In this document: one piece after another, positions 10,499 through 14,795 of the stretch
Layout: each line of letters begins with the position of its first letter
Position numbering within the stretch: the stretch's first letter is position 1
From: Promethearchaeota archaeon
Lineage (GTDB): Archaea; Asgardarchaeota; Lokiarchaeia; Sigyniarchaeales; SOKP01
Assembly: GCA_048937405.1 (NCBI GenBank)
Contig: JBHLNF010000004.1
Span: 32,001-96,000 of the forward strand
Reading direction: 5' to 3'
Length of the DNA stretch: 64,000 bases
Notes under the pieces: generated by a model
What the model was told of the DNA's origin: nothing
What the model saw: the letters and a program-made list of their open reading frames with translations, nothing else
The model's database searches: none
Position numbers and translations under genes: made by a program

Positions 10499-13153
10499 AT
10501 GATATCAGACTCGTTTGAAAAATTAAGACCTTCGAGAATTAAGCAAGAATTAATTCCTTTAATTATTATTTCAGTTATTACAATTTCATCCTTTTCCTAT
10601 TTTGCATATCAAGATAATATAGGCTCAATAAGTTATTCTCCAGAAGTACCAATAATTAATATTGAAATAGCAAGTGAAATAACCAATTTTTCTCAACAAT
10701 GTTTTTTAAAAATTTCTCCCATTTCAAGAGAATATGTAGGAGCTCCTTGGGCAAATCATTTTCTAGCTGCCAATATTAGAAAAAGAAATTCTGATGGTGG
10801 ATTTTCTTTTGAGTTATCTCAAAATGAAAATCTCTTTCAAATTCGTAATGATGATGATTGGATTCTTTTACCACCTGGAAAAAATCTTGATGCTCTTAGA
10901 ACAAAGATGGCATTTGATGTTTATAATATGATAATAGATGACAATTCAAATTTTAGACTCCCGCATTCTAAATTAGTTGAGGTATATATGAATGATGATT
11001 ATCAAGGTTTATATTTGCTTTCTGAAAGAATCGATCGAAAAATGATGAATTTAGAACAAGAAAATATTCAAAATCCTGAAGAAAATGATTTAATTTTTCA
11101 TTCGACTAATTGGGAAGGAGATTTTTACACGTATCCAAATAATATTGATTCACCATGGGAACAACTGTATCCAAATTTAATCGATTGCTCTAATATACTC
11201 AAAAGTCTTACAGAATTCATTCTTAATGCTTCAGAAATAGACTTTTTCGATGAGAAGAAGGGCATCTTTACCATCTTGAATAAGGATTCATTAATAGATA
11301 ATCTTTTATTTGGCTTACTTGTAGGACATGAAATTATTGAGGGTTCTTCATATTATTTAGTTTTAAACCAAGAATCTGAATCAGGCTTTTTTTTTCTACC
11401 TTGGAATTTTGCACAAAGTTGGGGGTATAGTGAATATGGTACGATTCCTATTGAACTGTGGTTAAATAAAGATGAAAATATTATCGATTTTGTTGTATGG
11501 AGTAAATTATATTATCGGTTGCTTTTTCCTGAAAATTCTTCTAAAAATAATGAGTTTATAAAAGAGATTATTAATAGATGGACTTATATTAGTACTAATT
11601 TTTGGAATAATAATAACTTAGCGTCATATTTTAATGAACTTTATATCCCTATTAAAAACACACTTATACGAAACACGAAGAATGAAGATTTCTTTGATAG
11701 ACTGGTTGAAACCATTGAAAATTGGATAAGAACTCGATGTGATTTACTTAATAATATTATAATCGCGCAAAAAAACGTTTTCTATAATAATTTTATTTCC
11801 CCTTATCAAGAGGATGACGCAATATTTGGATTCTCTAGTCCTACTGCAAGAAGATACTATTACAAATCATCATCACTATTTTCGACCCAAAAAATTCATG
11901 AAGTTAGTATAGTAATTCAGAGAGATTACTTTTATGATATGATGGAACGAAAACATGATAATAATAAATGGTCAGACCAATTATATATGCCTTCTGATGT
12001 TTCAATTGATAATTATTCAATGGATAATACAGGATTTCGAATTCGTGGTAATTTTAATAGGAGATTTCCTAAAGATTCTTTTAAATTAAAATTTAGTGAA
12101 ACAGAATTGTATATAGGAGATGGTTTATATAAATATGTTCCTGAAAATGAAAATCGACGATTTCTTGGATTAAAACGTTTAAATTTAAGAGCAGCTCCAT
12201 TAGATTTCTCACTAATGAATGAAGTTGCTGGTTATGAAGTTTTTACAATTCTTGGAATTCCTTGTACAAGATTAAGTTGGGCTAAACTTTATATTACTGA
12301 AACAAATGAAGAAGGAAAAATTATTAATCAAAAGGAATATAAAGGATTATATTTACTTACAGAAGACATTGATAAAACATTTCTTCGCTATAATTTTAAA
12401 AATCCAGAAGCAAATCTCTATAAGATTAATGCTGGTGTAGCTACTCTTGAATACATCTCAAATTTAAAAAATTATTTAACTGAAGACGGCCATAGAATTT
12501 ACGAACTTAGGACTAACCAAGATATAGATGATTATTCTGATTTGGAAAAATTTATACAATATATTAATTATAACTGGAGCAATATTCATGAAGTTGTAAA
12601 TTTAACCCTGCTTGCAAAATATTTTGCCGTAAGTGTATTTATAGGTAATTGGGATGATTATATTTTTATCCCTCATAACTATTGGATGTATTCTGATCCT
12701 AATTTTGGTTTTGTGCTTTTACCATGGGATATTGAACATAGCTTTAATAGTGGTAGTAATCAATCAATAATTGAGTGGGGAGCTCCTGATTATCGGAATG
12801 CTCCCTTGCTTTCAGGATATAAAGGATGGTATGATGAGGCTAGTTTACAATTTGGAATTAACCCTGTTACAAGGCCTCTTTGGGACAATTTAATTAATGA
12901 TACTGATTTTGTAGAAGAATATCTAAATGAACATGAGAAAATTGTAAACAATTCGGCTTCATTAATAGTACAACTTGAACAATTGTTTGATCTTATCCAG
13001 TCAACAGTTATCACTTCATTTAATTTTACGGATCCATATCCTACTATGGAGTATCTGCATCAAATCACCTATAACATATTTTTCAATGAAAAGTACCGAG
13101 TTCTAACCTTTATAGAGGAGCGAGCGCAATATGTTAGAGAGCAATTACTTTAA
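10499..13153 (+). CDS. membrane-anchored/secreted protein with two CotH kinase-family domains
   Basis: N-terminal TM/signal; domain 1 GLYLLSERID...LPWNFAQSWG; domain 2 IRGN...KDSFKLKF, GLYLLTEDID, GNWDDY...HNY, LPWDIEHSF. Confidence 0.85.
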   Translation: MISDSFEKLRPSRIKQELIPLIIISVITISSFSYFAYQDNIGSISYSPEVPIINIEIASEITNFSQQCFLKISPISREYVGAPWANHFLAANIRKRNSDGGFSFELSQNENLFQIRNDDDWILLPPGKNLDALRTKMAFDVYNMIIDDNSNFRLPHSKLVEVYMNDDYQGLYLLSERIDRKMMNLEQENIQNPEENDLIFHSTNWEGDFYTYPNNIDSPWEQLYPNLIDCSNILKSLTEFILNASEIDFFDEKKGIFTILNKDSLIDNLLFGLLVGHEIIEGSSYYLVLNQESESGFFFLPWNFAQSWGYSEYGTIPIELWLNKDENIIDFVVWSKLYYRLLFPENSSKNNEFIKEIINRWTYISTNFWNNNNLASYFNELYIPIKNTLIRNTKNEDFFDRLVETIENWIRTRCDLLNNIIIAQKNVFYNNFISPYQEDDAIFGFSSPTARRYYYKSSSLFSTQKIHEVSIVIQRDYFYDMMERKHDNNKWSDQLYMPSDVSIDNYSMDNTGFRIRGNFNRRFPKDSFKLKFSETELYIGDGLYKYVPENENRRFLGLKRLNLRAAPLDFSLMNEVAGYEVFTILGIPCTRLSWAKLYITETNEEGKIINQKEYKGLYLLTEDIDKTFLRYNFKNPEANLYKINAGVATLEYISNLKNYLTEDGHRIYELRTNQDIDDYSDLEKFIQYINYNWSNIHEVVNLTLLAKYFAVSVFIGNWDDYIFIPHNYWMYSDPNFGFVLLPWDIEHSFNSGSNQSIIEWGAPDYRNAPLLSGYKGWYDEASLQFGINPVTRPLWDNLINDTDFVEEYLNEHEKIVNNSASLIVQLEQLFDLIQSTVITSFNFTDPYPTMEYLHQITYNIFFNEKYRVLTFIEERAQYVREQLL

Positions 13154-13188
13154 GATATATATGAAACAAATAAAAGTGGTGTAATAAA

Positions 13189-13944
13189 ATCATTAGTTAT
13201 CAGAAATATCAGAAGTATTTCAACCGATTTGAGATAAAATATCAAATCTCATTAAAAGAAAGAGATAATTTACTTAGGTATATTCAACCATTTATAAGAT
13301 TGGATCCTTATGTTCAAAATAGTTATGATTATGAGGTAAGGAGCTTATATTTTGATTCTAATTTCCAACACTCATTTCTCGAGAAAGAAAATGGAATTGG
13401 TATTCGGAAAAAATTAAGGATAAGATTTTATCCAAATTTTACTAGAGATCATCAAGACTTTGCTTTTATTGAAATCAAGAAAAAATTTAATGAGAATGTT
13501 GCAAAGAGGAGGATTTATGTACCTCTTGAAAATGCCTTAAATATTTTAAATAGTAATCATAAAGTAGCCAAAAGTTTCTATGAAAACGCATCAACACAAG
13601 ATAAAGGCACTTTGAAAGAAATCTGGTTTCTTTATAAAAAATACAACTTAAAACCAGTTTGTATTGTTTCTTATAAAAGACAGGCTTATCAATCAAGGTT
13701 TGAAAAAACTTTTAGGATTACACTTGATACAAATGTAAAGGTGCGGAATCATAATCTTAATCTTAAGATTGGTGGTGGTTCGAAATTTATTGTTCCACAA
13801 AGGATTTGTATAATGGAAGTTAAATTTAATAATTTCATTCCAAATTGGGCTATAAAAATTATCCAAAAAAACGATTGTATACAATATAAAATCTCGAAAT
13901 TTGCAACTGGAATAGAAAAAACCAAAAATTTTGCTTTAGTCTAA
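13189..13944 (+). CDS. VTC-domain (polyphosphate polymerase-like, CYTH/TTM tunnel) protein; start extended upstream of the track's 13300
   Basis: In-frame upstream RFEIKY (13225-13242), then VRSLYFD, RKKLRIRFY, FIEIKKK, YKRQAY, RITLD, MEVKF, ISKF. Confidence 0.85.
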   Translation: MISYQKYQKYFNRFEIKYQISLKERDNLLRYIQPFIRLDPYVQNSYDYEVRSLYFDSNFQHSFLEKENGIGIRKKLRIRFYPNFTRDHQDFAFIEIKKKFNENVAKRRIYVPLENALNILNSNHKVAKSFYENASTQDKGTLKEIWFLYKKYNLKPVCIVSYKRQAYQSRFEKTFRITLDTNVKVRNHNLNLKIGGGSKFIVPQRICIMEVKFNNFIPNWAIKIIQKNDCIQYKISKFATGIEKTKNFALV

Positions 13945-14027
13945 TATTTCTATTCTGTTTTATGATATGTTTATGCTAATTAGATTTATTCTATTATATA
14001 AAATTTATTTTATGAAGTAAATTATTT

Positions 14028-14795
14028 ATGCATATGTGGTTAGATGATTTTATCATAAAATTTATTGAAGATTCATTTTTCACTTTAGGTACCAATATTT
14101 CACCAATAGAAGTATCCGATGTAATTATTGTTTTCTTTTGGAGTATTGTTCTATCAATCCTAATTGGAATTACCTATCGGGGAACACATCGAAGTATTTC
14201 CTATTCACAAAATTTTACTCAAACTTTGATATTATTAGGGATGATTGTGGGGATGATTATGATAATTATTGGAACAGATATTGCTCGGGCTTTTACATTA
14301 GTAGGTGCCCTTTCAATTGTTAGATTTAGAAATGCTCTAAAAGAAACCAGAGATGTTGGTTTTATCTTTTTTGTAATGGCTGTAGGAATGGCTTGTGGTA
14401 CACGATTTTATTTAGTAGGAATTATGCTTACTACTGTGGGTTGTAGCCTTATGTATTTCATGACATATACTAAATTTGGGCAAAAAAGCTTAGCGCAAGA
14501 CATTCTAGAACTTGATTTTCCTGTTTCTAAAGATTATGCTCAAATTTTGAGTCCAATTTTTGTAAGATATTTGAAATATTTTACGATCCTTGGAATCGAT
14601 TCGATAGATAAGGAGACAAATCGCATTAGTTTTATTGTTACTTTTAAACAAAAGTCAAAAATGTTCTCTTTCACAAAGAAGAGTGAATTTTCAAAAGGAC
14701 TAGACTCAAAAGCGGGTTTATTATCAGAAGTTCAGAAAATATCTTATATTACAAATATAAAAGTGATTGATGGAAGCAATTCAGTTGAGATTTAG
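14028..14795 (+). CDS. DUF4956 membrane protein (MgtC-like TM region plus ACT-like C-terminus)
   Basis: ARAFTLVGALSIVRFRNALKETRDVGFIF...GMACG signature; usual neighbour of VTC genes. Confidence 0.85.
   Translation: MHMWLDDFIIKFIEDSFFTLGTNISPIEVSDVIIVFFWSIVLSILIGITYRGTHRSISYSQNFTQTLILLGMIVGMIMIIIGTDIARAFTLVGALSIVRFRNALKETRDVGFIFFVMAVGMACGTRFYLVGIMLTTVGCSLMYFMTYTKFGQKSLAQDILELDFPVSKDYAQILSPIFVRYLKYFTILGIDSIDKETNRISFIVTFKQKSKMFSFTKKSEFSKGLDSKAGLLSEVQKISYITNIKVIDGSNSVEI

Follow-up and report, generated by a model that had tools for sequence, protein, structure and literature searches.

The cassette described here lies in the genome of a Promethearchaeota archaeon (assembly GCA_048937405.1), in a 64,000-nucleotide stretch of contig JBHLNF010000004.1 (positions 32,001 to 96,000 of the forward strand) that is called the window below and to which all coordinates refer unless another locus is named. 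The list of open reading frames (ORFs) places three genes on the + strand, encoding a CotH protein (10499-13153), a VTC protein (listed as 13300-13944) and a DUF4956 protein (14028-14795), and the ORFs together with their Pfam matches confirm the original prediction of three co-oriented genes of these families. Its assignment of the DNA to an Asgard-type archaeon also agrees with the nearest homologs of the VTC and DUF4956 proteins, which belong to Promethearchaeota/Lokiarchaeota and include those of Promethearchaeum syntrophicum and Lokiarchaeum ossiferum, and with the genes for TFIIB and a beta-CASP nuclease nearby. Each of the three families has a single locus in the host genome (4.47 Mb, 100% complete by marker genes) according to a whole-genome profile search. 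The cassette is a Lokiarchaeal copy of a widespread prokaryotic VTC-DUF4956-CotH module, an accessory element whose VTC protein is stand-alone like its bacterial counterparts, and nothing in the analysis connects it by descent with the eukaryotic VTC complex.

The VTC enzyme and its start codon

The VTC protein matches Pfam family PF09359 over nearly the whole profile (positions 1-233 of 235, 151 bits against a cut-off of 23, E 4e-44) and contains no predicted transmembrane segment, in agreement with the expectation of a soluble, cytoplasmic protein. It is a stand-alone protein of 251 amino acids when translated from the start codon proposed below, consisting of the VTC domain only. An HMMER scan returned 4470 clusters at 50% identity (E <= 0.001), and among the 150 matches listed almost all homologs are about 250 amino acids long, as for stand-alone proteins; the only longer homolog returned, which might have revealed a fusion of VTC to DUF4956 or CotH, was one fungal Vtc4, which is weak evidence that such fusions are rare. 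A PDB search with the single VTC sequence gave weak matches (E 0.045-0.55) and a profile search was used in its place, in which the family profile matched the catalytic domain of Vtc4 with E 7e-22 versus 1e-12 for the inactive Vtc2 and 1e-10 for Vtc3. The AlphaFold2 model (mean predicted local distance difference test score, pLDDT, 92.6) is a triphosphate tunnel whose top Foldseek matches are the Vtc4 structures 3g3r, 3g3q and 8i6v_E (best E 9e-15, TM-scores of 0.69-0.73), other tunnel enzymes being matched at E 1e-8 or weaker.

Fifteen residues are invariant in an alignment of 42 VTC sequences (R13, K17, K75, R77, R79, E95, K97, K106, Y162, R164, D180, E210, K212, S236 and K237). By profile alignment, nine of these are equivalent to residues of Vtc4: K17 to K200, R77 to R264, R79 to R266, K97 to K281, Y162 to Y359, R164 to R361, E210 to E426, S236 to S457 and K237 to K458. 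Mutation has shown that these nine residues of Vtc4 are needed for polyphosphate synthesis, and K458 is the one that Vtc2 and Vtc3 lack (bioRxiv 10.1101/2023.01.27.525886). The concern raised with the original prediction, that the protein might lack the catalytic residues of Vtc4, is thus answered by their complete conservation.

The start of the VTC gene is not among the canonical codons. Pfam detects the domain from 13222 onward, ahead of the first canonical start codon (TTG at 13300), and the frame opens at 13174, directly after a TAA stop at 13171. In most relatives the gene begins with ATG-ATC-CAA (MIQ...) a few codons ahead of the invariant FNRFEIKY motif. All four loci without a canonical start (the window, at 13171-13300; L015 of genome G002; L040:3887-4001; and L041:3911-4001) have an ATC or ATT at the corresponding position and, ahead of it, GGTG (GTAGTG in L041), with a spacer of 7 nucleotides to ATC 13189 in the window; two other members of the same VTC subclade have an ATG or GTG start. 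Ahead of the listed TTG, species differ only by synonymous codon changes, and about 50 VTC homolog clusters are recorded at 216 amino acids, 35 residues short, which is what one would see if gene callers had overlooked this same non-canonical start. Because of the profile start, the conserved ATC/ATT with its GGTG, the synonymous upstream codons and the 216-residue clusters, the gene most likely starts at ATC 13189 and extends from 13189 to 13944. The choice matters because a protein started at TTG would lose R13 and K17, the latter being the equivalent of Vtc4 K200. An out-of-frame mini-ORF on the + strand (13163-13186, MKQIKVV*), read from the sequence, ends just ahead of the proposed start and overlaps the GGTG (13178-13181); L040 has a shorter one (MV*) at the same place. 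The mini-ORF could be a regulatory upstream ORF or could be due to chance.

The CotH and DUF4956 proteins

The CotH gene (10499-13153) encodes 884 amino acids with two stretches that match Pfam CotH (PF08757, E 2e-57 for the whole protein). Its sole hydrophobic segment comprises residues 18-36 and is preceded by K8, R10, R13 and K15; related CotH proteins whose start was read likewise have a basic and hydrophobic N-terminus. With a single N-terminal anchor, basic residues before it and no further transmembrane segment, the bulk of the protein is predicted to be extracellular, and the prediction of an exported CotH is borne out to this extent, as an outward-facing, N-terminally anchored protein. 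Orthologs in genomes G002 and G013 are 64-66% identical and occupy the same chromosomal site.

A PDB search with the single CotH sequence found no match and was replaced by a profile search, in which the profile of the C-terminal domain (12038-13132, Pfam CotH E 6e-41) matched Bacillus cereus CotH (5jd9) with E 1.4e-37. In this domain, D719 aligns with the catalytic aspartate and D744 with the metal-binding aspartate, in register with the 23-residue spacing of D228 and D251 in B. subtilis, and K525, H726 and N727 are also conserved, so that the profile match, the catalytic aspartate, the HN pair and the metal-binding aspartate that characterize the family are all present. The N-terminal domain (10829-11740, Pfam CotH E 3e-18) has E278 in place of the catalytic aspartate, S284 in place of the asparagine of HN and N303 in place of the metal-binding aspartate, and the conserved lysine is missing; despite its profile match it lacks the catalytic residues of a CotH kinase, and it is probably a member of the family by descent and not a kinase. 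Of the double CotH that had been predicted, the two Pfam stretches therefore stand, but only the C-terminal one keeps its catalytic residues, the N-terminal one being degenerate. The nearest relatives of the N-terminal domain are stand-alone CotH proteins of 420-445 amino acids (L019, L020) that are 31-33% identical to it and keep the D, N and D. The tandem form is restricted to the subclade of the window (the window, G002, G013, L040 and L041). CotH proteins of similar length (about 880 amino acids) in farther Lokiarchaeia are not tandem: those at L014:8958-11615 (G038, P. syntrophicum), L013:4714-7398 and L017:2228-4843 (a set that includes G035 and G025) carry a single CotH domain and two lamin-tail-like repeats between an N-terminal anchor and a C-terminal hydrophobic one with basic residues behind it.

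The spore-coat kinase CotH of Bacillus (5JD9/5JDA) thus resembles the C-terminal domain in profile and in the register of both aspartates; it differs in acting with ATP in the mother-cell cytoplasm, whereas the CotH of the window is predicted to be anchored outward and carries an extra degenerate domain.

The third gene encodes 255 amino acids matching Pfam DUF4956 (PF16316, 60.7 bits against a cut-off of 30.6, E 2e-16) with four to five hydrophobic helices, which substantiates its description as a membrane protein. There are two in-frame ATG codons (14028 and 14034), and the second may be the true start, most close relatives beginning with MW. The AlphaFold2 model (pLDDT 74.7) has an N-terminal helix, five helices at residues 29-148 and a beta-alpha-beta-beta-alpha-beta domain at 158-247 that matches ACT/ferredoxin-like folds in VIA-align (Z up to 9.9). 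The C-terminal domains of MgtC proteins are among these matches (7qa5, Z 8.7; 2lqj, Z 8.4), within the range that is generic for ferredoxin-like folds. For the membrane part, no solved relative was found by Foldseek (E <= 0.001) or by VIA-align, which matched the C-terminal domain only. Topology predicted by the positive-inside rule is N-out and C-in, from which we infer that the two most conserved basic loops of DUF4956 (YRGTHR and RFRNAxKExRD) and the ACT-like domain are on the cytoplasmic side, the same side as VTC.

At a lenient threshold, the MgtC profile was matched weakly over full length by 28 of 29 DUF4956 family members (best E 7e-4), and DUF202, the membrane domain of Vtc1 and Vtc4, by only one of the 29 (E 1.6); no DUF202 gene was found in the genome by profile search. 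About five transmembrane helices followed by an ACT-like cytoplasmic domain, together with the weak but consistent profile match, liken DUF4956 to the MgtC/SapB family; the protein of the window nevertheless falls below the Pfam cut-off for MgtC (PF02308, 13.8 bits against 31.4), the ACT/ferredoxin-like fold is generic, and the two basic loops are specific to DUF4956. The proposal that VTC and DUF4956 form a split VTC complex is not upheld, since the membrane protein is MgtC-like rather than Vtc1/DUF202-like and the genome lacks DUF202; to judge from sequence, the pair would be at best a functional analog of the VTC complex and not a split version of it. A prediction of the VTC-DUF4956 complex gave a score of 0.00, which counts neither for nor against an interaction.

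Linkage, distribution and the eukaryotic VTC complex

The three genes occur together in eight related genomes of the host's order, within Lokiarchaeia, at the chromosomal site of the window in G002 and G013. Outside archaea, a Pseudobutyrivibrio plasmid has CotH-VTC-DUF4956, in the same order as the window, between glycosyltransferases; a Planococcus plasmid has VTC-DUF4956-CotH followed by genes for a hypothetical protein and a HEAT-repeat protein, as in NELoc-2 of Clostridium perfringens; and four metagenome contigs with VTC proteins 31-38% identical to that of the window have DUF4956 and CotH adjacent in other orders, often with beta-helix proteins. The arrangement is not due to chance, because it recurs in eight related genomes and in distant bacterial and metagenomic loci; the three families are adjacent and co-oriented across distant lineages, as befits a prokaryotic cassette. 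Of 14 control genomes, B. thetaiotaomicron, C. glutamicum and M. acetivorans have matches to both VTC and DUF4956, and no other has a match to either; CotH is matched in these three and in B. subtilis.

Of the 301 Asgard genomes sampled, seven contain the complete set of families, VTC and DUF4956 are present without CotH in three (G302, G147 and G156), and two (G032 and G299) have decayed cassettes. VTC is full-length in 12 of the 301 (about 4%), 17 having any VTC match, and is concentrated in the family of the window (8 of 68 genomes) and its sister family (4 of 7), with scattered occurrences in two other families; 12 of the 41 genomes of the host's order have VTC at E <= 0.001. VTC and DUF4956 are almost always found together and CotH is a frequent third member; the pair, in most cases accompanied by CotH, is present in several bacterial phyla. 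In G302, which belongs to the genus of the window, the locus (L038:4949-8892) encodes a lamin-tail-domain (LTD) protein, VTC, DUF4956 and a Cthe_2159 beta-helix protein, with no CotH. Pairs of this type indicate that the core of the cassette is VTC plus DUF4956, exported surface proteins being its variable partners. Of the decayed cassettes, that of G032 (L023) has a VTC that ends at profile position 142 and a CotH split by in-frame stops, DUF4956 not being found at this locus; that of G299 (C44:25080-26839) has a fragmented VTC with a stop adjoining an intact CotH.

In the window, the neighbors of the cassette encode CopA, a zinc-ribbon protein, PadR, a nitroreductase, IscU, a beta-CASP nuclease, a DUF5698/DUF2179 protein and TFB. 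These are unrelated to the three genes, and the cassette is therefore a self-contained unit; no Pel or glycosyltransferase genes that would indicate surface-glycan surroundings are among the neighbors in the window.

At the level of gene neighborhoods the cassette is known in print, and NCBI has annotations for the three families, also for the VTC and DUF4956 proteins of cultured Lokiarchaeia. Accessory genes for CotH, a polyphosphate polymerase (VTC) domain and DUF4956 have been described at pel loci of Gram-positive bacteria (bioRxiv 10.1101/768473 = PMC7112168), and the same set of families is present in NELoc-2 of C. perfringens (PMC2879425). In S. intermedius (SIR_1592-1594), DUF4956 and CotH mutants lose more than 50% of Pel-dependent aggregation (PMC12345266). 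The window shares with the pel loci and NELoc-2 the adjacency of the same three Pfam families, a CotH predicted to be secreted or exported, and a DUF4956 with transmembrane helices and an ACT-like tail; it differs in its archaeal host, in the lack of a Pel or glycosyltransferase context, in the tandem of a degenerate and an active CotH domain, and in the start of VTC at ATC.

The tunnel fold and the nine catalytic residues are common to the VTC of the window and the eukaryotic VTC complex (Vtc4/Vtc3 or Vtc2/Vtc1; 3G3Q, 7YTJ, 8I6V), as is the pairing of a predicted cytoplasmic polymerase domain with a membrane protein. Unlike its eukaryotic counterparts, the VTC protein of the window is stand-alone, without SPX or a fused membrane domain; its partner is the MgtC-like DUF4956 and not DUF202; and it has E15 where Vtc4 has T198.

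Trees of 83 and 38 rows were made with a single eukaryotic sequence (the Vtc4 of Fennellomyces, with SPX and DUF202), and an approximately unbiased (AU) test was applied to the 38 rows. In the 83-row tree, the Loki VTC sequences form one group (support 85) nested among prokaryotic stand-alone proteins derived from metagenomes, and the fungal Vtc4 is placed away from them on a long branch. A second Asgard type (family f16 and G302; 100% support), whose member in G302 is 28% identical to the VTC of the window, clusters at 95% support with genes from the Pseudobutyrivibrio and Planococcus plasmids, an indication that it arose separately, perhaps through horizontal transfer. In the 38-row tree, the fungal Vtc4 is inside a 12-row group that includes bacterial rows. 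Forcing the Loki clade together with the fungal Vtc4 costs 2.6 log-likelihood units and is not rejected (AU p 0.43). The trees thus give no support for a link between Asgard and eukaryotic VTC, although the AU test does not reject one, and such a link is made less likely by the different membrane partner and by a distribution that is patchy and polyphyletic. The suggestion that the cassette bears on how the eukaryotic VTC complex arose gains no positive support from a protein that is full-length in 12 of 301 Asgard genomes, is of at least two unrelated types and branches apart from fungal Vtc4; as far as the present data reach, the cassette has no bearing on this question.

A proposed role at the cell surface

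Searches of the host genome with profiles of PPK1, PPK2 and PPX/GppA found none of these enzymes, and across 41 genomes of the host's order no PPK1 and only a single case of PPK2 were found. The usual enzymes of polyphosphate metabolism seem to be missing from Lokiarchaeia, and the lineage seems to do without polyphosphate synthesis; with PPK1, PPK2 and PPX not found, VTC is therefore the sole candidate polyphosphate synthase where the cassette is present. This pattern fits a dedicated accessory role better than general storage of phosphate.

The interpretation that we favor, to which we give slightly better than even odds (a probability of about 0.55), is that the cassette is an intact, selected module of the cell envelope, in which a Vtc4-type enzyme would work together with DUF4956 at the membrane, while the CotH kinase, anchored there, would act outside. 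Its steps can be ranked in falling confidence. CotH, VTC and DUF4956 would take part in one phosphate-related process at the cell surface; VTC, associated with DUF4956, would build a phosphate polymer from a nucleoside triphosphate at the membrane; and then, as speculation, the polymer or its phosphoryl groups might pass via DUF4956 to the outer face of the membrane, where, equally speculatively, the anchored CotH kinase might use them on a surface protein or glycan. Such a chain of polymerization, passage and use by CotH would explain the persistent linkage of genes for a cytoplasmic polymerase with those for a membrane protein and for exported proteins. The specific version of it in the original prediction, amended to a polymerase-translocase of VTC and DUF4956 that does the work of the eukaryotic VTC complex without being its homolog and feeds polyphosphate or phosphoryl groups to an outward CotH without ATP, is in our estimation distinctly unlikely to be correct.

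Several observations weigh against the favored interpretation. DUF4956 has no detectable kinship with any known polyanion channel in structure and profile searches, and the neighbors of the cassette in the window, from CopA, PadR and the nitroreductase to IscU, beta-CASP and TFB, provide no context of substrate or glycan. No kinase of the CotH fold is known to use polyphosphate, and the literature that was searched contains no assay of a stand-alone prokaryotic VTC, of DUF4956 or of a cassette-type CotH. In the only published genetics, no phenotype is reported for deletion of the VTC gene of S. intermedius (PMC12345266). Lastly, the VTC of the window has Glu15 (RxExK) where Vtc4 has Thr198, and in this it resembles hydrolytic tunnel enzymes.

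The last of these observations is the basis for an alternative in which VTC is not a polymerase but a triphosphate-tunnel hydrolase or other nucleotide-processing enzyme, and the cassette has nothing to do with polyphosphate. The glutamate in question, that of the CYTH motif RxExK, is at least 90% conserved in the prokaryotic VTC family, and the other tunnel enzymes among the structure matches are triphosphatases or cyclases. We consider this alternative quite improbable nonetheless: the nine residues needed for synthesis by Vtc4 are invariant, including the lysine equivalent to K458 whose absence marks the inactive Vtc2 and Vtc3, and Vtc4 is matched far better (E 7e-22 by profile and 9e-15 by model) than other tunnel enzymes (about 1e-8). 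There is even less reason to regard VTC as a decaying pseudogene without a start codon in a horizontally imported cassette that is dying out. Although none of ATG, GTG and TTG occurs from the stop at 13171 up to the essential RFEIKY motif, and the relatives in G032 and G299 are indeed decayed, the frame is open with all catalytic residues intact, the upstream codons vary only synonymously between species, an ATC or ATT after a GGTG-type site recurs at the homologous position in the window, L015, L040 and L041, and the clusters at 216 amino acids fit a non-canonical start that has been missed; the probability of decay seems very small. A descent relationship between the Asgard cassette and the ancestor of the eukaryotic VTC complex is no less far-fetched. 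Its fold and catalytic residues are common with Vtc4 and the AU test leaves the grouping unrejected (p 0.43, difference of 2.6), but few Asgard families and only 12 of 301 genomes have a full-length VTC, which is of at least two unrelated types, one of them allied to plasmid genes of Firmicutes (95%) and present in the genus of the window too; the free trees, which contain one eukaryotic sequence, place it apart from the Loki clade, and the genome provides neither an SPX nor a DUF202 partner, the membrane partner being from another family.

More serious, though still unlikely in our judgment, is the alternative that VTC and DUF4956 constitute a membrane-tethered polyphosphate synthase or regulator that keeps its product in the cytoplasm, the MgtC-like protein serving the homeostasis of phosphate, Mg2+ or ATP, and CotH being only co-regulated and using another phosphoryl donor. 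It would account for the likeness of DUF4956 to MgtC in both the membrane part and the ACT-like tail, MgtC having been described as regulating ATP synthase and PhoR, not as forming a channel, and it would also account for the existence of VTC-DUF4956 pairs without CotH in G302, G147 and G156 and for the predicted cytoplasmic location of the conserved DUF4956 loops. The surface module is preferred over this alternative because the pair nearly always adjoins genes for exported surface proteins (CotH, LTD, beta-helix or Cthe_2159) and because most relatives lack any polyphosphate synthase, which speaks against a housekeeping role in storage.

The class of cassettes to which that of the window belongs raises the questions of how an extracytoplasmic kinase obtains its phosphoryl donor and whether prokaryotes export polyphosphate. 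To this class the window adds an archaeal example with a single membrane, found also in the cultured P. syntrophicum and L. ossiferum; a lineage without PPK1, PPK2 and PPX in which VTC is the sole candidate for polyphosphate synthesis; a tandem form of CotH in which a probable pseudokinase precedes a kinase; and a conserved non-AUG start at which gene callers cut off the essential first strand of VTC. If the polymerase-translocase described above is real, the cassette would serve Lokiarchaeia without PPK1 and PPK2 as their sole polyphosphate source, one dedicated to the cell surface.

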